Source of the DNA: a virus
Lineage: Duplodnaviria; Caudoviricetes
Direction: 5' to 3' (one strand)
DNA length: 24,921 nt
IMG/VR virus record: IMGVR_UViG_3300012940_000101
Span: 1 to 24,921 of that record
Part shown: positions 1-24,849 of the stretch, piece after piece
Numbering within the stretch: position 1 is the stretch's first letter
How the letters are laid out: every line of letters starts with the position of its first letter
Translations under genes and position numbers: made by a program
Notes under the pieces: model-generated
Seen by the model: only the letters and a program-made list of their open reading frames with translations
Databases searched by the model: none
Told to the model about the DNA's origin: nothing

Positions 1-136
1 CCTCAAAATTCCTCCGGGGGGATATTTCGGCAGACATTGGTGACCCCCGAGGGTCCGAAACCCCTCCCTTTCCCCTGTGACCCTTAACCTACCCCAAGCT
101 TTCTTGGCATGAACTCAACCGAAAGGAGTTGATACC

Positions 137-496
137 GTGCCGCCTCCGAAGAGAACTAATGGGAAAAACATCGAAAGGCGAATGAAAGTCGCGGCAACTC
201 CTGAAGGCCGCGAGAGCAAGATGATCGCGCTGGCGGCGAGACTGGCCGAACAGCAGCTTACGGAGGGAACCGCCTCCGCACAGGTGATCACTCACTACCT
301 AAAGCTTGGGTCGACTCGCGAACAGTTGGAGCAAGAGAGACTCAGGCACGAGAACGAGCTGCTGAGGGTTAAGCGAGAGGCGATCGAGTCTCAGAAGCGC
401 ATCGAGGAACTCTACCTCAAGGCCATAGATGCCATGCGAGCCTACTCCGGCCACGGAAAGCTTCAGCACGAAGACGACAGTCAAAATGATGAGTAG
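137..496 (+). CDS. Hypothetical protein, candidate terminase small subunit (119 aa)
   Basis: GAAAGGAG RBS at 121-128 before GTG. Basic N-terminus and coiled-coil C-terminal half. First gene ahead of HNH and terminase; the function is inferred from position only. Confidence 0.6.
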   Translation: MPPPKRTNGKNIERRMKVAATPEGRESKMIALAARLAEQQLTEGTASAQVITHYLKLGSTREQLEQERLRHENELLRVKREAIESQKRIEELYLKAIDAMRAYSGHGKLQHEDDSQNDE

Positions 497-896
497 GAGT
501 TACCGAGATCTTCGACGGCTCTCGACCTTCGAAGAACGCTTTCGCTATCTCGCCCTTGGGGGTCGAGTCGGAAGAGAGACCTTCGGGTTCGACCGCTGGG
601 TGAATCAAGGCTTCTACAAGTCCCGAGAGTGGCGCCAAGCCAGAGACCAAACGATCGTTCGGGATAACGGCTGCGATCTCGGCGTCGAGGGTTACGAGAT
701 CTACGACAAGATTTATATCCATCATATCAACCCGGTCACTCTTGAGCAGATCGAACGTGGCGATCCTTGTCTTGTCGATCCTGACAACCTGATCACAGTC
801 ACCCATCGAACTCACAACGCCATTCACTACGGAAACGAGAGGCTACTTCCAAGTCCTCTCGTTGAGCGACGAGCCGGAGACACAAAGCTCTGGTGA
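486..896 (+). CDS. HNH endonuclease (packaging-associated, HK97 gp74-like position)
   Basis: Motifs FYKSREW...RDNGCDLG...IYIHHIN...NLITVTHRTHNAIH. Start moved from 429 to ATG 486 (or 489), overlapping the end of the upstream gene. Confidence 0.88.
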   Translation: MMSRSYRDLRRLSTFEERFRYLALGGRVGRETFGFDRWVNQGFYKSREWRQARDQTIVRDNGCDLGVEGYEIYDKIYIHHINPVTLEQIERGDPCLVDPDNLITVTHRTHNAIHYGNERLLPSPLVERRAGDTKLW

Positions 897-907
897 GAGG
901 AGGGTCC

Positions 908-1015
908 GTGCCCAACAAGAACACCGGTCCTTGTGAGGACGCCTTCGACGACCTGGACGACAAGGTCGCCGAGGAGACCGAGGCCAACTACGAAGCCGAG
1001 GAGAAGAACGAGTGA
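908..1015 (+). CDS. Small acidic protein, 35 aa (MPNKNTGPCEDAFDDLDDKVAEETEANYEAEEKNE), not in the ORF track
   Basis: Strong RBS GAGAGGAGGG at 895-904, GTG at 908, and a TGA stop overlapping the endolysin start (GTGA 1012-1015). It fills the gap between the two genes. Confidence 0.7.
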   Translation: MPNKNTGPCEDAFDDLDDKVAEETEANYEAEEKNE

Positions 1016-1872
1016 GCACCTACGAGTACGTCAGCGCCAAGCTCGGGAAGGTAGCTCCCGCTACCAAGTCCATCTCCAAGGAGATCTACGACGCCGCGAA
1101 GGCTGCGGGCCATGAGATCTGGTACATGTGGGGTATGGGCACCAGCTCGGAGCACGCGACCGGGCGGGCGCTCGACCTGATGGTCCGCAACAAGGCCGCC
1201 GGGGACTGGATCCGAGACTACATCTGGAAGAACCGACAGCGCCTTCGTCTCCAGCACGTCATCTGGTGGCAGCACATCACGTCGACTGTCACGCAGCCCG
1301 GCGTGGTTCGGAAGATGAAGGATCGCGGCAGCGTCACGGAGAACCACAAGGATCATGTTCACGTTCTCTTCTTCCCCGGCGACTACGTCCCTCCGAGCGG
1401 CAAGTCTTCTTCCGGTTCTTCCAAGAAGCCGGTTACCAAGAAGAGCGTCGCTGAGGTCGCGCGCGACGTTATTGCCGGGAAGTACGGCAACGGCCAGACT
1501 CGCATCGACAAGCTTCGTGCCGAGGGTTACAACCCCGCCGAGGTTCAGGTTGAGGTCAACCGTCTAATGGCGGGACTGAAGGCGCCGAAGAAGTCCATCC
1601 GTCAGGTCGCGGGAGAAGTCATCGCTGGTAAGTACGGCAACGGTGAGGAGCGCAAGAAGCGTCTCGAGGCGGCTGGCTACGACCCGGCCGCTGTGCAGAA
1701 GGAAGTGAACCGACTTCTCGGCATGAGGGTCGACAAGTCCTTCAATGATGTCGTGATCGATGTGATCAAGGGTAAGTACGGCAACGGCGAAGAGCGAAGG
1801 AAGCGTCTGGAGCGCGAAGGCTACGACTACACCAAGGTCCAGGCCGAGATCAACCGTCGTCTCCGGCGCTAA
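1012..1872 (+). CDS. Endolysin: N-terminal Zn-peptidase-like (LAS/M15-type) domain plus three C-terminal CW_7 (Cpl-7) cell-wall-binding repeats
   Basis: H-x6-D (HATGRALD) and HxxHxH (HKDHVH) metal-ligand motifs, a Ser/Lys linker, and three repeats of V(A/V)xxVIxGKYGNGxxRxxxLxxxGYxxxxVQxE(V/I)NR. Confidence 0.88.
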   Translation: MSTYEYVSAKLGKVAPATKSISKEIYDAAKAAGHEIWYMWGMGTSSEHATGRALDLMVRNKAAGDWIRDYIWKNRQRLRLQHVIWWQHITSTVTQPGVVRKMKDRGSVTENHKDHVHVLFFPGDYVPPSGKSSSGSSKKPVTKKSVAEVARDVIAGKYGNGQTRIDKLRAEGYNPAEVQVEVNRLMAGLKAPKKSIRQVAGEVIAGKYGNGEERKKRLEAAGYDPAAVQKEVNRLLGMRVDKSFNDVVIDVIKGKYGNGEERRKRLEREGYDYTKVQAEINRRLRR

Positions 1873-1900
1873 TCCGTCAAAATGAAAGGAGGTGTCTCAC

Positions 1901-2272
1901 ATGGCACAGAGTATTCTCAACAGCATTAAGAAGGTCATCGGAATACACCCGGATGACGTCTCGTTCGACGAGGACATCGTAATGCACGTGAACTCGGCGT
2001 TCTCGACACTGGCACAACTGGGCGTGGGACCTGCCGAAGGCTTCATGATCGAAGACGACTTGGCTACGTGGGACACCTTCCTCGGCGCCGACCCGAGACT
2101 CCTCAACTCGGTGAAGACCTACGTCTACCTCAAGGTTCGTTTGGTCTTCGATCCGCCGAATACTTCCTTCGTCATCGAATCGATGAACAAGCAGATCCAG
2201 GAGCTCGAATGGCGCCTGAACGTACAGAGGGAGGAGGAGTCGTGGACCGATCCACTTACGTCAGTGGCTTGA
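1901..2272 (+). CDS. Head-to-tail adaptor (gp6/gp15-like connector)
   Basis: SILNSIKKVIGI...FDEDIVMHVNSAFSTLAQLGVG...YVYLKVRLVFDPP pattern. AAAGGAGG RBS lies 8 nt before ATG 1901. Confidence 0.7.
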   Translation: MAQSILNSIKKVIGIHPDDVSFDEDIVMHVNSAFSTLAQLGVGPAEGFMIEDDLATWDTFLGADPRLLNSVKTYVYLKVRLVFDPPNTSFVIESMNKQIQELEWRLNVQREEESWTDPLTSVA

Positions 2273-2289
2273 AGCTCAACGAGGTGAGA

Positions 2290-2855: not shown

Positions 2856-4601
2856 ATGGCGCTGTCGAATACGGCGACCCCATACTACTATGGCAAGTTC
2901 CGAGACGCTGTCATACGAGGCGAGATCCCGGTAAACCGAGAGATCTCGATGGAGATGAACCGTATCGACGCTCTCATCGCCAACCCGAACATCTATTACG
3001 ACCCCGACCCAGTCGAAGGTTTCATCAGCTTCTGCGAGAACGAGCTTACTCTCACTGACGGAAGCGACCTTCATCTGCTCGACACGTTCAAGCTCTGGGC
3101 CGAGCAGATATTTTGCTGGTACTACTTCGTGAAACGGACGGTCTACGAGCCTTACCCGGACAATCGCGGAGGCCGGTACGTCGAGAAAACGATCAAGAAG
3201 CGTCTGACCACGAAGCAGTACCTGATCGTAGCCCGAGGGGCCGCCAAGTCTCTGTACGAGTCTTGTCTACAGAGTTACTTTCTCAACGTGGACACATCGA
3301 CGACTCATCAGATCACTACGGCTCCCACGATGAAGCAGGCCGAAGAGGTGCTGCAGCCCATCCGGACTGCCATCACTCGAAGCCGAGGGCCGCTCTTCCA
3401 GTTCCTGACTGAGGGGTCACTTCAGAACACCACCGGCTCGAAAGCCAACCGGGTGAAACTAGCCGCCACCAAGAAGGGAATAGAGAACTTCCTGACAGGT
3501 TCTCTACTTGAGGTTCGTCCAATGACCATCAACAAGCTTCAGGGTCTGAGGACGAAGATGGCGACGATTGATGAATGGCTGTCCGGCGACCTCCGAGAGG
3601 ACGTCATCGGCGCGATCGAGCAGGGCTCGTCCAAGCTCGACGACTATCTTATCGTCGCGGTCAGCTCGGAGGGTACCGTCCGTAACGGAAGCGGCGACAC
3701 CATCAAAATGGAACTAGCCAGCATCCTCAAGGGCGAGTACCAGGCTCCTCATGTCTCGATCTGGCACTACAAGCTTGATGAGATCGAGGAAGTCAACAAT
3801 CCCGAGATGTGGTTGAAGGCGAATCCCAACCTCGGTAAGACCGTCACCTACGACGTGTACCAGCTGGACGTCGAGAGGGCGGAGAAGGCGCCTGCTTCCC
3901 GGAACGACATTCTGGCGAAGCGCTTCGGGATTCCCATGGAGGGCTACACGTACTTCTTCACCTACGAAGAAACCATCCCCCACCATCACCGAGAGTACTG
4001 GGGTATGCCCTGCGCTCTTGGCGCGGACCTTTCGCAGGGTGACGACTTCTGCGCGTTCACCTTCTTGTTCCCTCTCCCTGATGGGAAGTTCGGCGTTAAG
4101 ACCCGTAGCTACATCAGCTCCCTGACGATGATGAAGCTTCCGGGTGCGATGCGGCACAAGTACGAGGAGTTTGTCAACGAAGGGAGTCTGCACGTACTCG
4201 AGGGTACGATCCTCGACATGATGGAGGTCTACGATGACCTGGATGTTCACATCCAGGAGTGTGACTATGACGTGCGCGCACTTGGTTTCGACCCCTACAA
4301 CGCAAAGGAGTTCGTAGCCCGCTGGGAGGCGGAGAACGGTCCATATGGTATCGAGAAAGTCATTCAGGGGGCGCGTACAGAGTCTGTCCCGCTTGGGGAA
4401 CTGAAGGCTCTGAGTGGACAACGGATGTTGTTGTTTGATCAGGAGCTCATGAGCTTTGCGATGGGTAACGCCATCACGCTCGAGGATACCAACGGAAACC
4501 GCAAGCTCCTTAAGAAGCGACACGAGGCGAAGATCGACAACGTAGCCGCGATGATGGATGCTTTCGTGGCGTACAAGCTGAACAAGGAGGCGTTCGAGTG
4601 A
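2856..4601 (+). CDS. terL: Terminase large subunit (581 aa)
   Basis: Walker A-like IVARGAAKS, Walker B ATIDEW, coupling motif VSSEG, nuclease acidic motifs LGADLS and KIDNVAA, and WLKANPNLG. GGGAGGG RBS. Confidence 0.95.
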   Translation: MALSNTATPYYYGKFRDAVIRGEIPVNREISMEMNRIDALIANPNIYYDPDPVEGFISFCENELTLTDGSDLHLLDTFKLWAEQIFCWYYFVKRTVYEPYPDNRGGRYVEKTIKKRLTTKQYLIVARGAAKSLYESCLQSYFLNVDTSTTHQITTAPTMKQAEEVLQPIRTAITRSRGPLFQFLTEGSLQNTTGSKANRVKLAATKKGIENFLTGSLLEVRPMTINKLQGLRTKMATIDEWLSGDLREDVIGAIEQGSSKLDDYLIVAVSSEGTVRNGSGDTIKMELASILKGEYQAPHVSIWHYKLDEIEEVNNPEMWLKANPNLGKTVTYDVYQLDVERAEKAPASRNDILAKRFGIPMEGYTYFFTYEETIPHHHREYWGMPCALGADLSQGDDFCAFTFLFPLPDGKFGVKTRSYISSLTMMKLPGAMRHKYEEFVNEGSLHVLEGTILDMMEVYDDLDVHIQECDYDVRALGFDPYNAKEFVARWEAENGPYGIEKVIQGARTESVPLGELKALSGQRMLLFDQELMSFAMGNAITLEDTNGNRKLLKKRHEAKIDNVAAMMDAFVAYKLNKEAFE

Positions 4602-8122: not shown

Positions 8123-8140
8123 GATATTTAGGCTCAGTCT

Positions 8141-8464
8141 ATGACTCGATTCTACGGAAAGGTGGGATACGGCGTAACAGTTGAGACCTCTCCCGGCGTA
8201 TACGAGGATGTAATCACTGAATTCCCATATTTTGGGGACGTAGTGCGAAACTCGGTAAAGTTCAGGGAGGGGCAGAGCGTCAACAACGACCTCTCATTGA
8301 GTCACTCAATCAGTATCGTTGCGGACGCGTATGCGAACGAAAATTTCTTCGCGATTCGTTACGTGTCCTGGGGTGGGGCTCTGTGGTCTGTCACTGAGGT
8401 GGAAGTGCAGAGCCCCCGCCTCGTTTTGCGTCTGGGAGGCGTCTACAATGGGCCGACGCCTTGA
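8141..8464 (+). CDS. Head-to-tail stopper / head closure protein
   Basis: Position after capsid, 107 aa, beta-rich with YVSWGGALWSVTEVEV...RLVLRLGG pattern. Confidence 0.65.
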   Translation: MTRFYGKVGYGVTVETSPGVYEDVITEFPYFGDVVRNSVKFREGQSVNNDLSLSHSISIVADAYANENFFAIRYVSWGGALWSVTEVEVQSPRLVLRLGGVYNGPTP

Positions 8465-8753
8465 TCTGCAGGCGCTTTTTGAGGGGTTGCTGGGAAGCGA
8501 GAACGTATATTTTCAGCCCCCTTCCAACTTGCAGATGAAGTATCCCTGCATAGTCTACGCAAGGGACAACGCGAAGACAGAGTTCGCAGACAACAAACCT
8601 TACAGTTACGCCAAGCGCTACCAAGTCACGGTGATCGACAGGAACCCGGACACCGATATTCCTGACAAGATCGCTGCGCTGCCGTTGTCCAACCTGAACC
8701 GCGTGTTCACGGCTGGCAACCTCCATCACTACGTCTTCAACCTATATTTCTGA
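8448..8753 (+). CDS. Tail terminator / tail completion protein (101 aa)
   Basis: GGGAGG RBS at 8434-8439, ATG 8448, motif NVYFQPP...YPCIVY. Directly precedes the major tail gene. Confidence 0.7.
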   Translation: MGRRLDLQALFEGLLGSENVYFQPPSNLQMKYPCIVYARDNAKTEFADNKPYSYAKRYQVTVIDRNPDTDIPDKIAALPLSNLNRVFTAGNLHHYVFNLYF

Positions 8754-8772: not shown

Positions 8773-9654
8773 ATGGCCAGGCTCTCTTGGGACAAGGTCG
8801 GTGAGCGGTACTACGAGACCGGTGTCGACCGTGGCGTCCTCTACCTCCCTGACTCTCAGGGCGCATACACGACGGGCTACGCCTGGAACGGTCTGACGAC
8901 CGTAACCGAGTCGCCCTCGGGCGCCGAGTCCAACCCGCAGTACGCGGACAACATCAAGTATCTGAACCTCATCTCGACTGAGGAGTTCGGCGGGACCATC
9001 GAGGCGTTCACCTACCCGGACGCCTTCGCCGAGTGTGATGGTACGGCCACCCCGACGCCGGGTGTCGGTATCGGTCAGCAGACCCGGAAGACGTTTGGTC
9101 TCTGCTACCGCACCAAGGTCGGCAACGACCTGGATGGTCAGGACCACGGCTACAAGCTGCATCTGGTCTACGGCGCTCTCGCGGCGCCTTCGGAGAAGGA
9201 ATATTCCACGATCAACGACTCGCCTGAGGCGATCACCCTCAGCTGGGAGTTCACCACCACGCCGGTCGAGGTGGGCACCATCGCCGGTGTCACCTACAAG
9301 CCGACGTCGAACATCGTGATCGACTCGACCAAGGTCGACGCCGAGGCGCTGGAGACACTGGAGGAGTTCCTCTACGGCACCGTGGGTTCGGATCCGTCGC
9401 TTCCGTTGCCCGCGGCTGTCATCGCGATCTTCTCCAGCACCGTGACCGAGGTTTCTCCGGTGCCGCCTTCCTACGACGACGCCACTCACACGATCACGAT
9501 CCCGACTGTCACCGGCGTCGAGTACTACATCAACGGCGTTCTGGTCACTGGCGAGGTCATCATCAACCAGGACACGCTCGTCACGGCTCGGCCGGCGATC
9601 GGTTACAAGTTCCCGGCACTCGTCGACGTCGACTGGCTCATCAAGTACAGCTGA
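8773..9654 (+). CDS. Major tail protein with C-terminal Ig-like domain
   Basis: YETGVDRGVLY...AWNGLTTVTESPSGAE...YADNIKY...TIEAFTYP tail-tube pattern. Strong GGAGCGAGGAG RBS and strongly C/G-ending codons. Confidence 0.88.
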   Translation: MARLSWDKVGERYYETGVDRGVLYLPDSQGAYTTGYAWNGLTTVTESPSGAESNPQYADNIKYLNLISTEEFGGTIEAFTYPDAFAECDGTATPTPGVGIGQQTRKTFGLCYRTKVGNDLDGQDHGYKLHLVYGALAAPSEKEYSTINDSPEAITLSWEFTTTPVEVGTIAGVTYKPTSNIVIDSTKVDAEALETLEEFLYGTVGSDPSLPLPAAVIAIFSSTVTEVSPVPPSYDDATHTITIPTVTGVEYYINGVLVTGEVIINQDTLVTARPAIGYKFPALVDVDWLIKYS

Positions 9655-9681
9655 CAAGTCGTCTGAAAGGAGGTCCAGGGA

Positions 9682-10218
9682 GTGCTTGTCGTCAAAGTTC
9701 CTATGGAGGAGTCGCTCGTTGGGAACGAGTTCGTCGTCACGGAGTCTTTCAAGCTGGAACTCGAGCACTCCCTGGTCTCTCTGTCAAAATGGGAGTCAAA
9801 GTTCGAAAAACCCTTCCTCGGTAGGGAAGAAAAGACTCCTGAAGAATCCCTCTGGTATGTGAAAGCCATGACGCTCACACCAGATGTTCCGGAGCAGGTC
9901 TACCAGAACCTCACTCAGGAGAATCTGGATGAGATCGCCGCCTATATCAACGCCAAGATGACGGCGACCTGGTTCAACGAGAGGGAACAACAACGCCCGA
10001 GTCGAGAGATCATCACTGCCGAGCTGATTTACTACTGGATGATCAGCCACGGCATTCCTTTCGAGTGTCAGCACTGGCATCTTAACCGCCTTCTGACACT
10101 CATTAAGGTCTGCAACATCAAGAATTCTCCTCCGAAGAAGACGTCTAGGGCAGAGATGATCGCCCAACGTCGCAAACTGAATGCTCAGCGGAGGAGTATG
10201 TACGGAACCAGCGGGTGA
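9682..10218 (+). CDS. Tail assembly chaperone-like protein (178 aa, single ORF)
   Basis: Follows the major tail gene. [12 protein letters not shown] and YYWM...[10 protein letters not shown] motifs. AAAGGAGG RBS. Confidence 0.6.
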
Positions 10219-10232
10219 AAGGAGGTTGTTGA

Positions 10233-11021
10233 GTGCCCAGATTGACTTGGGGCAGTCCCGGAACCCGGGCGTTCGAGACCGGCGTCGATCGTGGCGTTAT
10301 TTACGTCGGGAATCAACCTGGGATTCCCTGGGTTGGATTGACCTCCGTCGATGAATCGCCCGATGGTGGAGGCACCAAGTCGTACTACTTCGACGGCGTC
10401 AAGTACGCCCACACGACGGCCTCCGAGGAGTTCTCGGCGACCATTACAGCCTACACCTATCCGGAGATCTTTGCTCATTGCGACGGTACTGCCCAGCTGA
10501 GAACCGGACTTTTCCTTACTCAGCAGAAACGGAAGACGTTCGGCTTGAGCTACCGGACCAGGGTGGGGAATGACCAGGACCCGGAGCGTGGGTACAAGAT
10601 CCACATCGTTTACAACGCGCTGGCTGAACCTTCGCAGAGGAACTACTCCTCGGTCGGGGAGACGGCGGAACCCGTCGAGTTCAGCTGGACTGTGACGACT
10701 CGTCCTCCGGTGATTCCAGGTTACAAGCCGACGGCGCATGTCGTAATCGACTCGAGAAGTACTGACGCAGACGTGTTGAAAGCCGTGGAGGATGCGCTTT
10801 ACGGCGATGACGAGAACACGGCCAGACTTCCCACTCTGGACGATATTCTCGCCATGTACGACGCGTTCTACCACTTCGAGGTTACGGATCTCGGCGATGG
10901 CGTATACACCATTTCCGGTCCGGATGAAGCGATCACGCTTCTCGAGAACAACATGATTCAGTTCGACTGGCATACGGTGGTTCAGGTCGACGAAGAAACA
11001 TACACCATCAGTTCGGGGTAG
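10233..11021 (+). CDS. Second major-tail-protein-family paralogue (262 aa)
   Basis: Aligns by eye with 8773..9654 (RLxW, ETGVDRGV, WxGLTxVxESP, EEF..TI.A.TYP, RKTFGL.YRT.VGND, GYK.H.VY.ALA.PS, YKPT...IDS) and has a different C-terminus. Confidence 0.85.
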   Translation: MPRLTWGSPGTRAFETGVDRGVIYVGNQPGIPWVGLTSVDESPDGGGTKSYYFDGVKYAHTTASEEFSATITAYTYPEIFAHCDGTAQLRTGLFLTQQKRKTFGLSYRTRVGNDQDPERGYKIHIVYNALAEPSQRNYSSVGETAEPVEFSWTVTTRPPVIPGYKPTAHVVIDSRSTDADVLKAVEDALYGDDENTARLPTLDDILAMYDAFYHFEVTDLGDGVYTISGPDEAITLLENNMIQFDWHTVVQVDEETYTISSG

Positions 11022-11033
11022 AAAGGAGGTTTT

Positions 11034-11780: not shown

Positions 11781-11803
11781 GATAAGAGGAAGAGGGTATA
11801 TTT

Positions 11804-12691: not shown

Positions 12692-13069
12692 ATGATTTCG
12701 TTCGCAGTCCGCCGTTCGGGCAAGCGAACGGAAGACTCTCTCAGAAGATTGCAGCGAGGTGATATTTACAAGAGTCTCGATTCGGCAGCTCAGGAAGGCG
12801 TCAGGGCTCTGGCGTCTTCCACGCCGGTCGACACAGGACTTGCCGAGGATTCCTGGGGCTACGAGATCGAATATTCTCGCGGCCGGGTGACCATTCGGTG
12901 GACGAACAGTGACATCGAGAACGGCTTCCCCGTTGCCATCATGCTTCAGTACGGCTATGGGACTGGAACGGGCGGCTACGTACAGGGTCGTGACTACATC
13001 AACCCGGCCATGAGGCCAGTATTCGACCGTATTGCAGATCAGGTTTGGAAGGCGGTGACAATGGTATGA
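12692..13069 (+). CDS. HK97 gp10-like neck/tail-completion protein
   Basis: TPVDTGL...SW and LQYGYGT...YINPAM motifs characteristic of the gp10-like family. Confidence 0.7.
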   Translation: MISFAVRRSGKRTEDSLRRLQRGDIYKSLDSAAQEGVRALASSTPVDTGLAEDSWGYEIEYSRGRVTIRWTNSDIENGFPVAIMLQYGYGTGTGGYVQGRDYINPAMRPVFDRIADQVWKAVTMV

Positions 13070-16000
13070 GCAGCATCGACGAGCGCGTCGTTCAAATGAG
13101 GTTTGAGGACGCCGAGTTTCGGCGTGGTGTCCAGCAAACTCTCAATGCTCTAAATCAGTTGAACCAAGCACTGAAGCTTCAGGGCGCTACGCAAGGTTTT
13201 CAGGAAGTCGCCGCCGCGAGTCGGCAGTTCGACGTCAACATGTCCCGCAACAGGGACGCTATGGGTCGCTTCACCGCGAGTATGGCTCAGGTGACCACGG
13301 CGACGACCCAGTTCGATCAAAATGTAGGTAGAAACCGTGACTCGCTCGGACGCTTCACCGCTTCGGTCGAGCAAGTCTCGACATCTACCAACGGTTTTTC
13401 CCAGAAGATCGAGTCGAGCAAAGAGAAGATCGAGCGTTTCGCCACCGGCGTTTCCTCCGCCATCCAGACCTTCGGTGAAAAGATCAACCTGGGTAGGGAG
13501 CACGTCAACAGCTTCGCCGACAAGCTCAACGACATCGGCAAGGAAGCTGACAAGCAAAACGGCGCCCTCAAGAGGATAGGCGACAACGTCCAGAACATAG
13601 CGAGTCGGTTCACTAAGCTCGGTACCGTAGCCACCGGCGCGCTCATGAACATCGGCGCCAGGGCTCAGGAAGCCGGTATGCGGATGCTCAACTCGTTTAG
13701 TTTCGGACCCATCATGGATGGTTTTCGAGAGTACGAGCTGAACATCAACTCGATCCAGACGATCCTCGCCAATACTCAGGCCGCTGGTACCACTCTGAAA
13801 GACGTCACTGGCGCTCTTGACCAGCTGAACACCTACGCCGACCAGACCATCTACAACTTCGCCGAGATGACGAGGAACATCGGTACCTTCACGGCCGCCG
13901 GCGTTGGTCTGAAGGAGTCGGTCGCCGCAATCAAGGGTATTGCCAACCTCGCCGCCATCTCCGGCTCCAATTCGGAGCAGGCTGCTGGCGCTATGTACCA
14001 GCTTTCACAGGCCATCGCTGCGAACCGGGTCACCCTGGAGGACTGGAACTCGGTAGTCAACGCTGGTATGGGCGGTACTGTCTTCCAGCGCGCCCTCGCG
14101 CAGACAGCTGTTGCGCTCGGAAAGCTTGACAAGAATGCGGTCAAGCTGGACGGCGCGATGAAGAACGTCACCGTAAACGGCAAGTCCTTCCGCGAATCCA
14201 TATCTGCGGAGAACGGAAAGTCGTGGTTGGACTCCGAGGTCCTCACCAAGACCTTGGCCCAGTTCACCGGTGATCTTAAGGATGCCGATCTTGCTGCTAT
14301 GGGTTTCAACAAGCATCAGATCAAGGCCATCCAGGAACAGGCCAAGATGGCAAAAGCAGCCGCCACCGAGGTCAAGACGCTATCTCACCTGTTCGACACC
14401 TTCAAGGAGCAGCTCGGCTCCGGATGGGCTCAGACCTGGCAGATCATATTTGGTGACTTCGCCGAAGCTAAGGGGCTCTTCACTGGCATCAGCAACTCTG
14501 TTGGCGATATGCTGCAGAAGTCTTCGGACGCCAGGAACAAGATGCTCCAGGACTGGAAGTCGTTCGGTGGACGAGATGCTCTGATCAAGGGTATCACCAA
14601 CGTATTCCAGGCCCTGGTCGGGGTTCTCAAGCCCGTCAAGGACGCCTTCCGGGAGATATTTCCTCCCACCACTGGTAAGCAACTCGCCGAGATGACGAAG
14701 TCGTTCCGGGACTTCACCGAACGACTCAAGATTGGTAGTGATACTGCTGAGAAATTGAAGCGCACCTTCGCTGGCGTCTTCGCCATATTTGGTCTGGCGT
14801 GGGACGTCATCAAGGGTGTCGTTGGTGTTATATTTGATCTGGTTGGTGCCGCTTCAAAGGGTTCTGGCGGAATCCTCAGCTTTACCGCCAAGATCGGAGA
14901 CTTCCTCGTAGCCATCCGCAAGGGCATCAAGGAAGGAAAGGGGCTCACCAACTTCTTCAAGGGTTTGGGCGATATTCTTGCCGTGCCCATCAAGTTGGTC
15001 GTGAAGCTTGGCGAGCTTCTCGGAAAGCTGTTTAAGGACACCGACACCAAGGGCGTTGAGAAGAGCGTCGAAAACCTCTCGGCCAAGCTCGATCCTCTCG
15101 GGAAGATCGGAGAGGTGGTCTCTAAGGTCTGGGGGAAGGTTCTCACGGTCATGAAGAACGTGGCGAACGTCTTCAGGGATCTTGGCGATCGCATCTCACG
15201 TGTCTTCGAGGGGCTGGGTCTCGACATCTCCACGATGTTCAGCGGCTTGGACTACGGGAAGATCTTGGCAGGAATCAACACCGGCCTCTTCGCTGGTCTG
15301 GTTCTCATGTTCAAGAACTTCTTCGACAGCTTCGACGACGGGCCGTCTGGCCTCCTCGACAAGCTGAGCGAGGGGGTCGAGAACCTGACCGACGCCATCG
15401 GGGCGATGCAGGATACTCTTCGCGCGGCGACTCTGCTTCAGATCGCCGTTGCGATCGGAATTCTGGCCGTCTCGATGAATATCCTCTCGAAGATCGACGC
15501 GGACGGTCTTACAAGGGCTTCCGCTGCTATGGCTGGCCTGTTCACCCAGCTGATTGGCGCTCTTCTGGTCTTCGAGAAGCTCTCAAGCTTCAAGGGTTTC
15601 GCCAAGATGCCCTTCGTTGCTGCTTCGATGATTCTCCTGTCCACAGCCATCGTTATTCTTGCTCAGGCTGTGGAAGACCTCGCAGCTCTGAATTGGAAGG
15701 AGCTTGCTAAGGGTCTTACCGGCACGGTGGTGCTTCTCGCCGCAGTCGGCGGCGTGACGCAGCTGATCAAGAACCCCGGCGGTCTTATTTCCGTGGGGCT
15801 CGGTATGATCGCCATCGGTGCCGCCATCAAGATCCTCGCGAGCGCTGCCAAGGACATGGCCGCGTTGAACTGGGAGGAGATCGGGAAGGGACTTCTCGGG
15901 GTCGGAACGCTCCTCACGTCCCTGGCTATATTTACAAGATTCGGCAACATCAACAAAGCCGGACTTATGCAGGGAGCCGGGATCATATTGCTTGCGACCG

Positions 16001-18699
16001 GGCTCAAGATTCTTGCCAGCGCGACCAAGGACTTCGCCAAGATGTCCTGGGATGAGATCGGAAGAGGACTCGCCGCGCTCTCCGGCGGTCTTGTGTTGGT
16101 CGCCGGCGCGCTCAAGCTCATCCCGCCGACGGCTCCTCTTGCTGCCGCCGGTATTCTCCTGACTTCGCTTTCTCTGGGGATGGTTGCGGACGCCCTCAAG
16201 AAGATGGCGAAGATGAGCTGGTCAGACATCGGTAAGAGTCTTACGACCATGCTCGGCGTTCTCACCCTCATCACGGCGGCTCTGTATGTCATTCCGCCCA
16301 CCGCACCTCTTGGCGCTGCCGGGATATTTACCACGGTTCTGGCACTTAAGCAGGTGTCTGATGTTCTGAAGGAGATGTCTCAGTACTCCTGGGAAGAGAT
16401 CGGCAAGTCCATGGTCATGCTCGCCGGTACTCTCGGGATCATATCTGGCGCGCTTCTTCTTTCGTCCGGCGCTCTTTCAGGAGCAGCGGCAATCATCGTC
16501 ATCGCTGGTGCACTTGGCATCCTTCAGCCGGTGCTGCTGTCGTTCAGCCAGATGTCGTGGGAGGAGATCGGAAAAGGTCTTCTCATGCTCGCCGGTGCTC
16601 TTACGGTTATCGGTGTCGCTGGCGCGCTTCTGGCACCTGTGGTGCCGGCAATCCTGGGGCTTGGCGCCGGTATCGCCCTTCTGGGCGTCGGCCTTGCGGC
16701 CGCAGGTGCTGGAACACTCTTGTTCGCAACAGCTCTGACTGCGCTGGCCGCAGCTGGCGGCGCGGCTGTAGCCGTGGTCGTCGGTATCGTGACAGGTCTG
16801 ATAGACCTCATCCCTCGCTTCATGAAGAGAGTGGGCGAGGGGCTGGTCGAATTCGCCAAGGTTATCGAGAAATCCGGCCCGGCTATTACCAAGGCTCTGG
16901 TCGTGGTTATCGAATCGCTTATTTCTGCGATCACAACGCTTACGCCCAAGATCGTGGACGCGCTTCTGAGAATGCTCACAATGATGCTTCAGAAGATGTC
17001 TCAGTATATTCCACGGATGGTGGATGCTGGTCTGAAGCTTCTGAACGGTATTCTCAGGGGTATCTCGAACAACATCGGAAAGGTTCTGGACACCGCGACG
17101 AAGGTCGTTGTGAACTTCATCAACGGCGTTGGAAGGAATCTTCCGAAGGTTGTCGACGCCGGTGTGAAGCTCATCATCAACTTCGTCAATGGCGTCGCCA
17201 AGGCGATCGATCGGAATTCTACGGCCCTTGGTCAGGCTGGTGGTCGCCTAGGCGTGGCCATCGTCAAGGGTATGGCCAAGGGCATAATGGGCGGTCTCGG
17301 CGAGATCAAGAACGCCGCAATGAGCGTCGCACGTACTGCGCTCAACAGCGCTAAGAACTACCTCGGTATTCATTCTCCTTCGAAGGAGTTCGAGAAGGTT
17401 GGTAAGTTCGTTGTCGACGGTTTCCGCAAGGGGCTCGACGGCAACAAGGAGCAGATCAACAAGGCGTTCAGCGATCTCAAGACGATGATCAGTGATGCCA
17501 GGAAGGCTGCTTCTGAGGACGTCACCAAGCTCGAGGCGAAGCTCAAGAAGCTCAATTCGGCTCGTAAGAAGGACTGGGGTGAGATTCGTAAGACCAAGAA
17601 CGAACTCGCTCAGGCCAGGAAGGAAGTTAAGGCCACAAGCGCCGCCTACACCGAGCTGACCAAGAACCTTGTCAACAAAAAGACGGAACTTGGAAAGCTC
17701 GCCGACAAGTACGACCAGTACACCGAGAAGATCAAGTCTGCCCAGGAGGCGTACGACAATGCGGTGAAGACTCGCGACGACTATCGCAAGTCCATTACCG
17801 AGCAGTACTCCGACATGGAGACGCCGACCGGTGAGACCCAGCTGACCGACTATATTTCGAATCTGAAGAAGCAGATCGAGGACACCAAGCAGTTCTCGAA
17901 TGTGCTTCAGAGGCTTCGTGCGTTCGGTCTGAACGACGAGACGTACAAGGACCTTCTCACTGCGGGTACGAGTGCCCTCCCGTTCATGGAGCAGCTTCTC
18001 GACAGCGGCAAGGACGGTATCGCGGAGCTGAACCAGCTGGCGAAGGAGCTGGACGAGGCCGGTGGGCACCTCGGCAAGACGGCTTCTACGAGTCTGTACC
18101 AGGCGGCAGTCGACTCTGCAAAGGGCTTCCTCGACGGGCTCAAGAAGGAGCAGGCGAACATCGAGAAGCAAATGGACAAGATCGCCGACGGGATGGTCAA
18201 AGCCATCAAGAAGAAGCTGGGCATCAAGTCTCCTTCGCGGGTCTTCATGGAGATCGGCGAATATTCTGCGGAGGGGCTTGTCAAGGGCGTGGACAAAATG
18301 TCCGGTGTTGTCGAGAATTCGGCGACTCGTGCCGGTTCTGCGGCAGTCGAAGCTCTTCGGAAGTCTATCTCCGGGTTCTCCGACCTCGTCAGCAGCGATC
18401 TCGACTCGAAGCTAGTCATCACCCCGGTGCTGGATCTCTCCAGCGTCCGTAAGGATGCCGCTCAGGTCGGTAGGATGTTTGAGGCTCAACCGATCAAGGT
18501 GGACTCGGCATATTCCAAGGCGAAGTACGTCGCTTCTCAGTACGCATCCAATCAGACGGCTAGGGAGGAACTGGCTACAACACCCAACCTTATTTCCTAC
18601 GTTCAGAACAACTACTCGCCGAAGGCTCTGTCCTCGGCTGAGATCTACCGTCAGACCAAGAATCAGTTGTCTACGATGAAGGGAGCTCTGACGACGTAA
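13066..18699 (+). CDS. Tape measure protein (1877 aa)
   Basis: ATGA overlap with the upstream stop. Very long Ala/Gly/Leu-rich helical protein with a tape-measure domain (YADQTIYNFAEMT...AMYQLSQA), repeated MSWxEIG units, and GIHSPS/GIKSPSRVF motifs. Confidence 0.95.
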   Translation: MSSIDERVVQMRFEDAEFRRGVQQTLNALNQLNQALKLQGATQGFQEVAAASRQFDVNMSRNRDAMGRFTASMAQVTTATTQFDQNVGRNRDSLGRFTASVEQVSTSTNGFSQKIESSKEKIERFATGVSSAIQTFGEKINLGREHVNSFADKLNDIGKEADKQNGALKRIGDNVQNIASRFTKLGTVATGALMNIGARAQEAGMRMLNSFSFGPIMDGFREYELNINSIQTILANTQAAGTTLKDVTGALDQLNTYADQTIYNFAEMTRNIGTFTAAGVGLKESVAAIKGIANLAAISGSNSEQAAGAMYQLSQAIAANRVTLEDWNSVVNAGMGGTVFQRALAQTAVALGKLDKNAVKLDGAMKNVTVNGKSFRESISAENGKSWLDSEVLTKTLAQFTGDLKDADLAAMGFNKHQIKAIQEQAKMAKAAATEVKTLSHLFDTFKEQLGSGWAQTWQIIFGDFAEAKGLFTGISNSVGDMLQKSSDARNKMLQDWKSFGGRDALIKGITNVFQALVGVLKPVKDAFREIFPPTTGKQLAEMTKSFRDFTERLKIGSDTAEKLKRTFAGVFAIFGLAWDVIKGVVGVIFDLVGAASKGSGGILSFTAKIGDFLVAIRKGIKEGKGLTNFFKGLGDILAVPIKLVVKLGELLGKLFKDTDTKGVEKSVENLSAKLDPLGKIGEVVSKVWGKVLTVMKNVANVFRDLGDRISRVFEGLGLDISTMFSGLDYGKILAGINTGLFAGLVLMFKNFFDSFDDGPSGLLDKLSEGVENLTDAIGAMQDTLRAATLLQIAVAIGILAVSMNILSKIDADGLTRASAAMAGLFTQLIGALLVFEKLSSFKGFAKMPFVAASMILLSTAIVILAQAVEDLAALNWKELAKGLTGTVVLLAAVGGVTQLIKNPGGLISVGLGMIAIGAAIKILASAAKDMAALNWEEIGKGLLGVGTLLTSLAIFTRFGNINKAGLMQGAGIILLATGLKILASATKDFAKMSWDEIGRGLAALSGGLVLVAGALKLIPPTAPLAAAGILLTSLSLGMVADALKKMAKMSWSDIGKSLTTMLGVLTLITAALYVIPPTAPLGAAGIFTTVLALKQVSDVLKEMSQYSWEEIGKSMVMLAGTLGIISGALLLSSGALSGAAAIIVIAGALGILQPVLLSFSQMSWEEIGKGLLMLAGALTVIGVAGALLAPVVPAILGLGAGIALLGVGLAAAGAGTLLFATALTALAAAGGAAVAVVVGIVTGLIDLIPRFMKRVGEGLVEFAKVIEKSGPAITKALVVVIESLISAITTLTPKIVDALLRMLTMMLQKMSQYIPRMVDAGLKLLNGILRGISNNIGKVLDTATKVVVNFINGVGRNLPKVVDAGVKLIINFVNGVAKAIDRNSTALGQAGGRLGVAIVKGMAKGIMGGLGEIKNAAMSVARTALNSAKNYLGIHSPSKEFEKVGKFVVDGFRKGLDGNKEQINKAFSDLKTMISDARKAASEDVTKLEAKLKKLNSARKKDWGEIRKTKNELAQARKEVKATSAAYTELTKNLVNKKTELGKLADKYDQYTEKIKSAQEAYDNAVKTRDDYRKSITEQYSDMETPTGETQLTDYISNLKKQIEDTKQFSNVLQRLRAFGLNDETYKDLLTAGTSALPFMEQLLDSGKDGIAELNQLAKELDEAGGHLGKTASTSLYQAAVDSAKGFLDGLKKEQANIEKQMDKIADGMVKAIKKKLGIKSPSRVFMEIGEYSAEGLVKGVDKMSGVVENSATRAGSAAVEALRKSISGFSDLVSSDLDSKLVITPVLDLSSVRKDAAQVGRMFEAQPIKVDSAYSKAKYVASQYASNQTAREELATTPNLISYVQNNYSPKALSSAEIYRQTKNQLSTMKGALTT

Positions 18700-19526: not shown

Positions 19527-20692
19527 TGGAAGCCTATATTCTTGACCCCCTCCTCCGTCGGCAGGAAGTCATCGACAGCTTCGAGTCTTTCATCTGGACC
19601 GAGAGATTCCAGGCGTACGGTGACTTCCAGCTGGATCTTCTCCCGAACACCAGATACCGGTCGCTCATCAAGACTGGCACCCGACTCGCCATGAACGAGT
19701 CCTACAGGGTAATGGAGGTCGAAACCCTAGAGGATACCGTCGATACAGAAGGGAGGCAGATACTCACTATCAAGGGGCGCTCGATCGAGTCCATTCTCGA
19801 GAGCCGCGTCGCCAAGGAATCAGACGACGATTTGGAAACCTCTCCTAAGTGGGTGATTACCGACGAACCAGCCAAGGTAGCCAGGAAGATCTTCCACGAT
19901 ATTTGCGTCGAAGGAGTTCTTGATCCGGGCGACGTGATTCCGTTCATCGTCGAGGGAACCTTCATGCCGGAGGACACGCTCGCCGAGCCGGTAGATCCGA
20001 TCACAGTAGAGCTGGAACCCACCACAGTCTACGACGCGATCAAAGAGATCTGCGAAGTCTGGAATCTCGGTTTCCGAATCCTTCGACAGACGGACGATTC
20101 CAAGCTCTACTTCGACGTTTATTCCGGAAGTGATCGTACCACGGGTCAGACGACTCTTCCGCCGGTTATATTTGCGCCGGGACTGGACAACCTCCAGAAC
20201 ATCAAAGAGCTGACCACGGTTGAGAAGGCGAAGAACGTTGCCTATGTATTTTCTCCGGCGGGTTTTCAGAAGGTGTATGCGCTGGACGTCGAGGAAGATA
20301 TTTCAGGCTTTGATCGCCGCGTCCTCGTCGTCAACGCAAGCGACATCACCACCGACAACCCGAACCCCGTCTCGGCCATGATTCAGCGGGGTAAGGAGGA
20401 ACTCGCCAAGAACAAGGCTATGCAGAGTCTCGATGGCGAGATCAGCCAGTTCAGTCAGTATCGGTACGGCGTCGACTACAACCTCGGCGACATCGTGGAG
20501 ATGCGTAACTCGAATGGTGTGACGAATAACATGCGCGTCACGGAGCAGATATTTGTACAGGACCGGGAAGGTCAGCGCTCCTACCCGACGCTCACCGTCA
20601 ACACCTTCATCACGACCGGATCCTGGCTGTCCTGGCTCAACAACAAGGTCTGGTCTGAACTCACGGATGAGGAATGGGCCGACCAGCCTTGA
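19526..20692 (+). CDS. Baseplate hub / Tal-like minor tail protein (ReqiPepy6 gp37-like type)
   Basis: TGATG overlap with Dit. FESFIWTERF..YGDFQL N-terminus and YGVDYNLGDIV C-terminal motif. Confidence 0.8.
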   Translation: MEAYILDPLLRRQEVIDSFESFIWTERFQAYGDFQLDLLPNTRYRSLIKTGTRLAMNESYRVMEVETLEDTVDTEGRQILTIKGRSIESILESRVAKESDDDLETSPKWVITDEPAKVARKIFHDICVEGVLDPGDVIPFIVEGTFMPEDTLAEPVDPITVELEPTTVYDAIKEICEVWNLGFRILRQTDDSKLYFDVYSGSDRTTGQTTLPPVIFAPGLDNLQNIKELTTVEKAKNVAYVFSPAGFQKVYALDVEEDISGFDRRVLVVNASDITTDNPNPVSAMIQRGKEELAKNKAMQSLDGEISQFSQYRYGVDYNLGDIVEMRNSNGVTNNMRVTEQIFVQDREGQRSYPTLTVNTFITTGSWLSWLNNKVWSELTDEEWADQP

Positions 20693-20713
20693 TATTTGGA
20701 AGGGAGGTACGTC

Positions 20714-21949: not shown

Positions 21950-21976
21950 GAAATGTATATTTAGGGGAGGGTGCGC

Positions 21977-22731: not shown

Positions 22732-22774
22732 TCGCACGTTTTGCAGGCCCTTTAATGAGACCCCTCGGAAAGGA
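22732..22774 (+). promoter_or_regulatory. Repeated promoter-like element, copy 1 (TCGCA...TTTAAT-GAGACCCC...GAAAGGA)
   Basis: One of four copies with identical internal spacing, each followed by an RBS and start codon. Confidence 0.75.
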
Positions 22775-23083: not shown

Positions 23084-23114
23084 CGAACTAACCATCCGCC
23101 CGACCGAAAGGAAG

Positions 23115-23163: not shown

Positions 23164-23187
23164 CTCCCGTTGCGTTCGGAGTTCAAA

Positions 23188-23421
23188 ATGCGAAACAAGC
23201 TGGCGATCGCTGTTATATTCTCTCCCCTTGCTGCCACCGCTTTTCTGATCCTCAAGGACGCCAGGAGACGCTACAAGAACCAGAAGCGTAAGGAATTCGA
23301 AATCAACGCGAGAAATCACGCTACTTTCGTCACGCTTCGGCTCTGGCTCGAAGGGGAAATCAACAGCAAGAAGGAACTCGACGAGGTTTGGCAGTTCGCC
23401 TATATGACCTACGGCCTCTGA
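23188..23421 (+). CDS. Hypothetical membrane-anchored protein (77 aa)
   Basis: GGAG RBS then TCAAAATG start. N-terminal hydrophobic helix LAIAVIFSPLAATAFLIL followed by a basic cluster. Confidence 0.7.
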   Translation: MRNKLAIAVIFSPLAATAFLILKDARRRYKNQKRKEFEINARNHATFVTLRLWLEGEINSKKELDEVWQFAYMTYGL

Positions 23422-23508: not shown

Positions 23509-23546
23509 AACCCCCCCTGTACGGGGGTTTTGGGTTTTATATTTTT
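23509..23546 (+). terminator. Repeated terminator-like hairpin, diverged copy
   Basis: AACCCCC-CCTGTAC-GGGGGTT followed by TTGGGTTTTATATTTTT; similar to the copies at 23812 and 24196. Confidence 0.65.
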
Positions 23547-23551
23547 GCGGA

Positions 23552-23594: not shown

Positions 23595-23600
23595 CACGAA

Positions 23601-23801
23601 ATGATCCGCGAAATCCACGTGCAGGAAACCGCCAACCCGCTGAACTCCGGCATCATAGCCATATCGCCCGACGGCCGACAGGCTGCTTACATGCTTGTCG
23701 AGGAAGGGTGTGTGGTTGGTACCGTGTTCATCGGGCAGGGTGATTTCCACCGCATGACCGATCATCAGATCATCGAGCACGTCGCCAGAATTCTCTACTG
23801 A
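23601..23801 (+). CDS. Hypothetical protein (66 aa)
   Basis: Flanked directly by the promoter-like repeat and a terminator-like repeat. Confidence 0.75.
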   Translation: MIREIHVQETANPLNSGIIAISPDGRQAAYMLVEEGCVVGTVFIGQGDFHRMTDHQIIEHVARILY

Positions 23802-23805
23802 TCGC

Positions 23806-23846
23806 AAAAAGCCCGGCCCCTACAAGGGGTTTGGGTTTTATATTTT
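23806..23846 (+). terminator. Repeated terminator-like hairpin
   Basis: AAAAAGCCCGGCCCCT-ACA-AGGGGTTTGGGTTTT then ATATTTT. The 28-bp core is identical to 24196-24223. Confidence 0.75.
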
Positions 23847-23888
23847 CGACCTCGCGTCCGAGATTCCGAAGGAGACCAAAGACTGGCC

Positions 23889-23931
23889 TCGCATATTCTA
23901 CACGCGCTTTTATGAGACCCCGTCGAAAGGA
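23889..23931 (+). promoter_or_regulatory. Repeated promoter-like element, copy 3 (TCGCA...TTTTAT-GAGACCCC...GAAAGGA)
   Basis: Same spacing as the other copies; precedes GTG 23938. Confidence 0.75.
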
Positions 23932-23937
23932 AGCGCC

Positions 23938-24189
23938 GTGTTCGGTAAGAAGAACAAGAAGGCTCTGCAGATTTCTGTCGTAAACCACCCCAAGACTGAC
24001 GAAGGTGCGGTTTGCGAGGAGAGCAAGAAGGTCATCGATCCCGAAACCGTTCGGAACATCGCCGAACAGGGGAAGGAGTTCGCCAAGAAGCTTGCTCTCA
24101 TCGCAATCGGCACCTACGCCGCCATCAAGGCTATCGACACAGCGAGCCAAGTGATCGTCAACAAAACCAAGAACGGCAAGGAAGACTGA
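23938..24189 (+). CDS. Hypothetical protein (83 aa) with one hydrophobic helix
   Basis: Flanked by the promoter-like repeat and a terminator-like repeat. LALIAIGTYAAIKAI segment. Confidence 0.75.
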   Translation: MFGKKNKKALQISVVNHPKTDEGAVCEESKKVIDPETVRNIAEQGKEFAKKLALIAIGTYAAIKAIDTASQVIVNKTKNGKED

Positions 24190-24193
24190 TCTC

Positions 24194-24223
24194 AACCCGG
24201 CCCCTACAAGGGGTTTGGGTTTT
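24194..24223 (+). terminator. Repeated terminator-like hairpin
   Basis: AACCCGGCCCCT-ACA-AGGGGTTTGGGTTTT immediately after the stop at 24189. Confidence 0.7.
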
Positions 24224-24242
24224 CGCCGGAGAGGATGCTTTC

Positions 24243-24479
24243 GTGCACAGAAAGGCTTATCATTACGTCATAACCATCGAAGGTAGAAAGATCAACCCCG
24301 AGCCTGGCGCTTCTGAGATCGGATGGATTACTCTCGACGGGGTCGTCAAACTCAGCGAGGTCGCCACCCGTAAGGGTGTATACGATTACGCTCTCGCCAA
24401 CGCTTGCGCAATCGCCGGTCTTGAACGGGAGAATCCCAAAGTCCTGTTCTTCTCCGCAGAGCCGCAGTACTTCACCTAG
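24243..24479 (+). CDS. Hypothetical protein (78 aa)
   Basis: GGAGAGGA RBS at 24228-24235 before GTG 24243, in frame with the track ORF 24012..24479. Confidence 0.65.
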   Translation: MHRKAYHYVITIEGRKINPEPGASEIGWITLDGVVKLSEVATRKGVYDYALANACAIAGLERENPKVLFFSAEPQYFT

Positions 24480-24493
24480 AGAGGAATATTTTC

Positions 24494-24790
24494 ATGGCGA
24501 GGAACAACGAAGCGAACTTCACCTTTCCGAACCTCACGCCGCAGCTCATTGTCGCGCCGAACTTCGATCAGGCTCGTAGGTTCTGCGAGAAGATGGGGTG
24601 GAACCCTCGCTACGTCGAGGTCGCGATTTCGCCGAAGTACCTCGATGTTTTCTATACCCTGAAGGGATGGGAGGTTTGGTTCCTCGACGGCGAGTGGCCA
24701 TGCAGAACATACGAGCAGGTTCGGATAAGAGGGATCATGGAGAAGAAGCTCAGAAGACTCGACGCCGACATTCGCCACTGGTGGGCGTAA
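24494..24790 (+). CDS. Hypothetical protein (98 aa)
   Basis: GAGGA RBS before ATG 24494; no motif recognised. Confidence 0.7.
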   Translation: MARNNEANFTFPNLTPQLIVAPNFDQARRFCEKMGWNPRYVEVAISPKYLDVFYTLKGWEVWFLDGEWPCRTYEQVRIRGIMEKKLRRLDADIRHWWA

Positions 24791-24849
24791 GTCCGAAAGA
24801 GAAAACCATATTTTCCCCGGTGGGGTTTTCCGGAAAAAACTTTCCGGGC

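Follow-up and report, generated by a model that had tools for sequence, protein, structure and literature searches.

ATATT(T/C), a dispersed one-strand word in a phage lineage, and its possible reading by a predicted single-chain RNA polymerase

Introduction

Thermus phage P23-45 encodes two single-chain two-barrel RNA polymerases, gp96 and gp64, with motifs upstream of 14 and 7 mapped starts (10.1101/2022.12.01.518664), and YonO of the Bacillus prophage SPbeta transcribes late genes with little pausing and from one late start site (PMC5467207). We describe a six-base word, ATATT(T/C) (ATATTY), dispersed along one strand of a 24,921-nucleotide stretch of viral DNA (Duplodnaviria; Caudoviricetes; IMG/VR record IMGVR_UViG_3300012940_000101, positions 1 to 24,921), the whole of which was analysed and is called the window hereafter. 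The explanation that we favour, at a probability of roughly 0.4, is that its copies are dispersed start or loading sites, of an early/middle class, for the RNA polymerase predicted in this phage lineage.

The poxvirus late initiator TAAATG and the T4 late promoter TATAAATA are very short AT-rich late start signals, words of the KOPS and Chi type are host-specific and have a host enzyme as reader, and stoperators are 13 bp long. The latter are, in cluster A mycobacteriophages, numerous asymmetric sites spread over the genome and oriented with transcription, some of them at promoters (PMC9283540, PMC4351075), and the repeat of cluster O is a palindrome (PMC4351075). The replicase GP55 of Lactococcus phage 1706, which belongs to the same lineage as the window, has the priming site CCAAC and low specificity (PMC12205980). 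Koert et al. group cluster BI with clusters AM, AU, AW, DJ, CC and EL, the Lactococcus 1706-like phages and FP_oengus, report poor codon adaptation of these phages and propose that a right-end protein of about 910 residues is an RNA polymerase (10.1101/842583). No description of the ATATT(T/C) word was found in the literature searched, which left the original 1706 and Pepy6 papers and supplements outside its scope, and ATATT was not found in the accessible text of four papers on these phages (PMC12859696, PMC5513430, PMC13313380, PMC12205980).

Results

An excess of ATATT(T/C) on one strand

A recount returned 31 ATATTT on the + strand, at every coordinate listed in an earlier note on this DNA, and, again as that note had it, no AAATAT (ATATTT on the - strand). 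The zero is not significant (0.87 expected); because it already matches chance, the signal is the excess on the + strand. The window has a GC content of 56.8%, less than the premise of about 60%, and ATATTT is its top 6-mer against a second-order Markov expectation of 1.02. The variant ATATTC is indeed frequent, with 17 copies on the + strand, and ATATT occurs 51 times versus 6 for AATAT. The true word is ATATT(T/C), broader than ATATTT.

The codon shuffle that the earlier note had called for left the enrichment in place: 22 coding ATATTT stand against 0.82 in a genome-wide and 1.50 in a within-gene shuffle, and 0 of 1000 shuffles reach 22 under either null. As had been seen at single sites, the motif uses all reading frames (codon phases 10/6/6 for coding ATATTT); 9 of the 31 are non-coding or overlap a stop, and 38 of the 48 copies of ATATTT and ATATTC are intragenic. 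All six Ile-Phe pairs in the tape measure are coded ATA-TTT, as previously noticed, and 4 of 10 outside it; ATA encodes 13 of the 18 Ile residues preceding a TTN codon versus 17 of the remaining 447. In 928 pooled sites A is disfavoured at -1 and -2, the flanks hold no further information and nothing is informative outside -2 to +6. Site spacing is Poisson-like (coefficient of variation, CV, 0.9-1.2). The shuffles, the three frames and the spread across relatives support the proposal of a dispersed, oriented cis-signal under selection at the nucleotide level, and between RNA and DNA as the level of the signal we lean towards DNA.

The word recurs across the lineage

All relatives were found via the predicted polymerase. 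Of 129 genome loci and 523 viral loci 80 each were kept, a second viral scan giving the identical 80, and with 3 more these made 163 loci, 127 of them non-redundant; on genome contigs the single-sequence query gave 0 matches and an alignment query succeeded. With an estimated 4,700 or so stored stretches in the viral collection, the lineage is large, and it ranges over soil actinobacteriophages, dairy phages and gut prophages. Counts of ATATTT in genes relative to codon expectation (observed/expected here and below) are 21/0.9 in the window, 16/0.7 in LibertyBell, 27/1.0 in Rima, 12/0.3 in Scap1, 29/4.1 in Kerry, 26/7.1 in FP_oengus and 18/5.9 in Gordon. Pooled over the 127 loci they are 1027/376 ahead of the polymerase gene, 107/30 within the first kb of that gene, 41/21 in its remainder and 175/113 in the late region, with the reverse word at 0.65-0.92. 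ATATTY is enriched at least 2-fold in 56 of the 77 polymerase-linked loci with enough upstream coding DNA, and in most relatives its density is highest in early and replication genes, not in virion genes; within early regions its cover is even. A constant site density across GC content was not seen, the values going from 3.8 to 0.35 per kb.

The same word is found in phages of Streptomyces, Gordonia, Arthrobacter and Faecalibacterium and in Lachnospiraceae-binned contigs, and it is enriched in most relatives with Actinomycetota and Bacillota hosts. Since it is common to phages of two host phyla, a host-read, KOPS-like signal, one of the options first considered, is unlikely, and the reader is probably phage-encoded; recurrence across several host genera is also not what a host-specific word of the KOPS or Chi type would show. 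What is conserved in relatives is the enrichment of the word, and its positions turn over: shared window sites number 8 of 32 with LibertyBell, 8 of 28 with Rima and 8 of 30 with Scap1.

Copies on the two strands number 31 versus 0 in the window and 104 versus 1 in Kerry, counts in which gene strand and genome strand are not separable. Reverse copies in Kerry are 1 versus 27.7, and other AT-only 5-mers are low there too; in general such 5-mers are flat or depleted, save words overlapping the motif. The suggested strand test, on 10 reversed genes judged real by eye, gave no excess on the sense strand (4 vs 4.8) and a weak one on the genome + strand (23 vs 15.8, p ~0.05, few counts). A pooled test on 38 minus-strand open reading frames (ORFs), with a reverse-strand excess, was dropped, as many of these are shadow frames.

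In the 113-kb relative Paella (L196, 63699-113698, a stretch ending at the polymerase gene) all 139 of 139 annotated genes are on one strand, ATATT occurs 187 versus 45 times, and word density is flat across 46 kb, far from late genes.

A late word and a swap in one relative

The early/late layout of ATATTY is complementary to that of a second word, TCAAAATG, which is likely a late start signal. Across the lineage it stands at 97/22 in late regions, 29/31 in early regions and 1/13 in reverse, and 74 copies contain a start codon. The window holds 7 copies on the + strand (481, 1877, 3703, 6096, 9784, 13317, 23183) and 0 on the - strand, plus TCAAAAT at 3.

One relative, a prophage-like element (L069, G001:C1:8775-64300), has swapped the early word. 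It shows no excess of ATATTY (5/7.5); instead, between the first phage gene and the end of the first kb of the polymerase gene, every 2 kb holds 4-7 copies of CCAAAAT, with 0 copies in the host flank, 2 in reverse, and others on both sides of the cohesive-end (cos) site and on start codons. The late region retains TCAAAATG, of which CCAAAAT is a near-twin. The cores ATATT and AAAAT share A-W-A-W-T, and this one case suggests that they could be two specificities of one kind of signal. Among 18 distinct loci examined, of 42 fetched with the L069 polymerase (closest 51% identical), none has the swap.

Drifted early words are hinted at in single loci: CATATC, GTATTC, ATATTG and TTATAT (L183, L164, L047, L053). 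An excess of TACTGG in L052 is a pentapeptide repeat.

The predicted RNA polymerase

The 910-residue protein is predicted to be a single-chain two-barrel RNA polymerase. All 109 aligned polymerase-like sequences share invariant RxPH and GADFDGD-type motifs, the match to PF05183 is weak (E 0.022), and a model from the 109 sequences has a predicted local distance difference test score (pLDDT) of 87.5, versus 42 for the single-sequence fold; both the two-barrel fold and the polymerase activity are predictions. The protein, mostly annotated as a helix-turn-helix protein, is found by tblastn in 250 phage records, versus 247 for the capsid, and no Bacillus phage figures in the main organism tallies of the 250. 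A sequence search of the PDB gave only helix-turn-helix matches at E >0.1, an Atlas search only the protein's own family, and hhalign with a single YonO sequence a probability of 1%. With the cultured members Rima, LibertyBell and Kerry, two words and a natural swap, promoter recognition by this enzyme class is directly testable.

A short His-containing N-terminal motif (DUF7211 at window 2290; 2290-2832) heads several head-module proteins, and in L069 two such motif-headed proteins, at 14618 and 17156, closely match the N-terminus of the polymerase. The shared motif is possibly a capsid-loading tag.

Start codons, terminators and host-type promoters

ATATTY peaks 21-30 bases ahead of start codons. 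The peak is kept in long gaps between genes, at 9-13 per kb versus about 2.5, where it comprises 52 sites from 43 protein families. Sites ahead of the Shine-Dalgarno sequence (pre-SD sites) were found in 38 of 361 gaps without a terminator versus 2 of 231 mid-gap controls; with a terminator no more than 50 bases from the start codon the figure is 14 of 62, with a distant one 2 of 57, and the word directly follows 4 of 57 far terminators. Pre-SD copies are tied to start codons rather than to terminators. Of 53 host-type promoters, 14 have ATATTY in the spacer, in many cases immediately behind a terminator, and 0 of the 53 leaders have it. The spacer copies lie 5' of the predicted host start; the promoters concerned are paralogous to one another and possibly read through.

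In two loci (L036, L160) ATATTY stands between putative tRNA gene ends and the next ribosome-binding site.

Layout of the window

The record, a linear fragment estimated as about 44% complete, has a start resembling the left ends of relatives, and the window represents the left end of a siphophage similar to those of Streptomyces cluster BI. Its terminase is 90% identical to those of Streptomyces cluster BI phages such as Rima and its capsid 73.6% identical to that of LibertyBell. Genes run in the order HNH, endolysin, terminase, portal, fused protease-capsid, two major tail genes, tape measure, baseplate, holin and small genes. In the stretches of annotated relatives that were fetched, all genes are on the + strand except an integrase and one inserted FP_oengus gene. 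The features of the window are as follows.

3..30, + strand: left-end element adjoining cos, with TCAAAAT at 3 and ATATTT at 22
22..24813, + strand: dispersed ATATT(T/C) word, 31 ATATTT and 17 ATATTC
481..488, + strand: late word TCAAAATG on the HNH start codon
1877..1884, + strand: late word TCAAAATG upstream of the ribosome-binding site of the connector gene
3703..3710, + strand: late word within the terminase gene (Ile-Lys-Met), at the same place in Scap1, Kerry, Gordon, FP_oengus and P162
6096..6103, + strand: late word TCAAAATG including the protease-capsid start codon
6101..8122, + strand: protease-capsid gene, strongly codon-optimised, without a site and with one position that permits one
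8124..8749, + strand: cluster of 5 sites (8124, 8227, 8507, 8656, 8744), from the capsid stop to major tail gene 1
8773..9654, + strand: major tail gene 1, codon-optimised, with a single ATATTC at 9201
9784..9791, + strand: late word within the gene downstream of major tail gene 1, at the same place in five named relatives
11798..11803, + strand: ATATTT between ribosome-binding site and start codon; 24486 likewise
13066..18699, + strand: tape measure gene, with the word at 11 of the 15 positions open to it and a late word at 13317
20692..20697, + strand: ATATTT 22 bases before a start codon, just 5' of the ribosome-binding site
23183..23190, + strand: late word on a start codon immediately 3' of a hairpin and T-run
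23539..23544, + strand: ATATTT after a hairpin and T-rich tail, ahead of a host-type promoter; 23840 similar
23890..23913, + strand: host sigma-70-type promoter repeat with ATATTC in its spacer

Left ends of relatives carry ATATTT at 3 (LibertyBell, Rima, Scap1) or near 22 (Kerry, Gordon), and that of P162 has none beside cos; cos ends are given in PMC9671017. Like the copy at 20692, those at 21957 (-20) and 8744 (-29) precede start codons and stand just 5' of a ribosome-binding site. Most copies that had been placed at gene junctions are there, with the qualification that 8744 falls within the final codons of the tail-terminator gene and that 20692 shares bases with a stop codon; 23539 and 23840, noted as following terminators, each have a hairpin with T-rich tail upstream. 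No late word separates the five sites at 8124..8749 from the codon-optimised major tail gene 1, which they directly precede.

The host-type promoters at 22733, 23553, 23890 and 24851 consist of TCGCA, a -10 hexamer and then GAGACCCC, a repeat already known (PMC9671010), and precede small genes; some follow near-identical terminator hairpins. Those at 22733, 23553 and 24851 are without the word.

The gap over the capsid and major tail genes

The earlier note had found no copy in the capsid gene or in 8773-11780 and had drawn on this gap for an argument about virion protein stoichiometry. The gap holds for ATATTT; ATATTC occurs at 9201, 10843 and 11074 and ATATTG at 11263. Since synonymous change opens only 1 position of the window capsid protein to the word, the capsid gap is real but uninformative. 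GC content at third codon positions (GC3) is 0.92 in capsid and major tail gene 1, which leaves 0.01-0.02 expected sites, and in four capsids ATA encodes 0 of 134 Ile and TAT 0 of 84 Tyr. The gap is thus explained by extreme codon optimisation and was rejected as support for the stoichiometry idea.

In four BI genomes the allowed positions used are 0/10 in the capsid, 1/10 in major tail gene 1, 11/17 in head-tail genes, 9/10 in the neck, 30/46 in the tape measure, 33/61 in the baseplate, 0/28 in left-end genes and 0/14 in the polymerase gene. A class-specific codon correction gives 9-55-fold enrichment in 11 of 15 gene classes, and no site is present in the capsid, in the small gene that follows major tail gene 1, at the left end (0/0.28) or in the polymerase gene (0/0.13). 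Larger site-free holes occur in relatives: Kerry and Gordon have one over 0-16 kb, Scap1 has one over 0-8 kb and another over much of its right arm, and in FP_oengus most of the late region is such a hole. In most tail genes the word fills about one half to two thirds of the allowed synonymous positions, so that, whatever its reader, it is a second code overriding codon preference, and it may explain part of the poor codon adaptation of these phages.

Discussion

Comparison with described systems

By analogy, the word would work most like the AT-rich promoter motif of the P23-45 two-barrel polymerases, with which it shares an AT-rich motif oriented with transcription, two motifs for two gene time classes and, if the prediction for the lineage protein is right, a phage-encoded two-barrel polymerase. 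P23-45 has two enzymes and mapped starts, whereas here there is one candidate enzyme, and each genome has 24 to >100 copies of a 6-base word, the majority of them within genes. Because its copies do not lie mainly upstream of genes, we do not file it as a promoter of the P23-45 type. YonO is a single-chain polymerase of about 100 kDa, as the lineage protein is predicted to be, but lacks profile similarity to it (probability 1%), and the SPbeta late region has no ATATTY excess (12 vs 16, 11 vs 14).

Like a stoperator, the word is asymmetric, oriented and dispersed, with some copies at promoters. Stoperators, however, are longer sites bound by an immunity repressor, whereas this word has 6 bases and is strongest in lytic phages, no repressor was identified, and the 928 pooled sites give no long (~13 bp) consensus. 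GP55 offers the likeness of a short single-strand word with a lineage-wide phage enzyme as reader, but its word is another sequence, CCAAC, which is not enriched in these genomes, and the even whole-genome cover of a primase site is not seen, given gaps of 9.2 and 10.9 kb and the early/late split. For the late word only, the poxvirus initiator and the T4 late promoter may serve as analogies, and TAAATG includes the start codon, as TCAAAATG does.

Dispersed start sites and the points against them

We infer that the 910-residue protein is an active polymerase that reads ATATTY and starts RNA there. ATATTY would then mark an early/middle class, and TCAAAATG beside it would likely mark the late class. 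Because any copy would work, copies would build up at places where a synonymous change costs little; a copy within a tail gene would supply downstream and early genes, and one ahead of a ribosome-binding site would act as an ordinary promoter. In favour of this explanation are the spread of the word over phages of two host phyla, the invariant motifs of the polymerase-like protein, the peak ahead of start codons, the copies in host-promoter spacers, the five sites before major tail gene 1, the restriction of TCAAAATG to late regions and the swap in L069. In a bolder form, which we consider doubtful, the whole programme of a very large phage lineage, whose genomes are one-way almost throughout, would rest on two words of 6-8 bases placed across its genes by synonymous change, swappable early (ATATTY/CCAAAAT) and fixed late (TCAAAATG), read by one minimal, possibly virion-packaged two-barrel polymerase. 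As such a polymerase would load anywhere on phage DNA, site density and not promoter position would set transcription.

Several observations weigh against dispersed start sites. Unlike ordinary promoters, copies are mostly intragenic (38 of 48) and even over gene deciles (2.6-3.1-fold) with no rise at the 3' end, and the pre-SD peak is minor; about half of its excess is common to other T-rich hexamers. No purine signal was found 3' of the word in the pooled sites, and pre-SD sites are as frequent, within error, in genes with a host promoter as in those without (5/80 vs 43/402, p=0.31). Kerry, Gordon and FP_oengus (3 of 7 relatives) lack the cluster ahead of the major tail gene, and two more have a single site there. 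P162 shows no enrichment (48/42 ATATTT in genes), the sole negative of 8 genomes, and depletion of reverse copies is inconsistent, being not strong in the window or Gordon. The polymerase gene itself lies outside this fragment of about 44%. Finally, the L069 polymerase has unique changes in its second helix-turn-helix; four other loci (L049, L062, L064, L209) also deviate there yet keep ATATTY, so that the comparison does not support this helix as the reader.

Alternative explanations

An unlikely alternative is a negative transcription signal, that is, a pause or termination site of the polymerase or a stoperator-like roadblock that damps early and low-copy genes. The oriented, intragenic word would suit it, as would the operator-like overlap with host-type early promoters (14/53), the sparse cover of the head block in Kerry, Gordon and Scap1, after which the word begins, and the copy adjoining cos in 6 of 7 named or own left ends, which recalls the pause at the T7 concatemer junction. 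Against it stand the five copies that lie between the capsid gene and the codon-optimised major tail gene 1, where no late word could restart transcription, the association of copies with start codons and not terminators (4/57 directly after far ones), the flat density in Paella over 46 kb far from late genes, and a 6-base word with no flank information.

It strikes us as improbable that AUAUUY is a point of RNA cleavage or decay, at which a phage nuclease would turn over the messages of early and low-copy genes in the manner of T4 RegB. The even intragenic spread, the peak near translation starts, the early-region density and the presence of the word at 11 of the 17 positions open to it in the low-copy head-tail genes, which lie between capsid and major tail gene, would all fit. 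Against it, the word also sits in promoter spacers 5' of the predicted host start, in many cases immediately behind a terminator (these promoters being paralogous and possibly read through), and AUAUUY is no more unpaired than other AU words (0.63 vs 0.60; 199 and 152 sites; p=0.39, and p=0.12 in another test). The reversed genes point the same way, weakly and with 10 genes, their sense strand having 4 vs 4.8 and the genome + strand 23 vs 15.8, and the cos-adjacent copy was switched along with the others in L069.

We also give rather low odds to lagging-strand priming or another oriented replication or packaging signal, read by a primase-helicase-polymerase or the terminase. A short, one-strand, Poisson-spaced word (CV 0.9-1.2), independent of position (8 of about 30 sites common to each of three relatives) and with a copy beside cos, would fit such a signal, and the swapped word of L069 shares CCAA with the 1706 GP55 site CCAAC. 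GP55, however, prefers CCAAC with limited specificity, and the accessible text on it does not mention ATATT (PMC12205980); CCAAC is not enriched (27 vs 23 in the window, 35 vs 32 in P162), the longest ATATTY-free gaps measure 9.2 kb (Scap1) and 10.9 kb (Kerry), and the early/late split and the pre-SD peak would be left unexplained. Readings other than those listed here have a small share.

A by-product of codon or codon-pair usage, to which the dipeptide-linked ATA-TTT in 6 of 6 tape-measure Ile-Phe pairs might point, is dismissed by the word's presence in three frames and in non-coding DNA, a count that 0 of 1000 shuffles reach, the flat or depleted other AT-only 5-mers apart from motif-overlapping words, and its wholesale swap in L069.

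Further observations

Some relatives (L028, which is Kerry, L116 and L127) show an enrichment of palindromes, namely GGATCC (in Kerry 56 vs 15.6) and GCCGGC. In MW145539.1 (SscP1EGY) the capsid gene is on the strand opposite to the terminase, through either an inversion or an assembly error. A short ORF at window 4614-4832 matches only the final third of PHROG 6291 and is possibly a remnant of a tagged head-module gene. At 24806-24850 the window contains an internal stretch like the left-end cos element of LibertyBell and Rima, with ATATTT, a GC core and a hairpin with an A-run.

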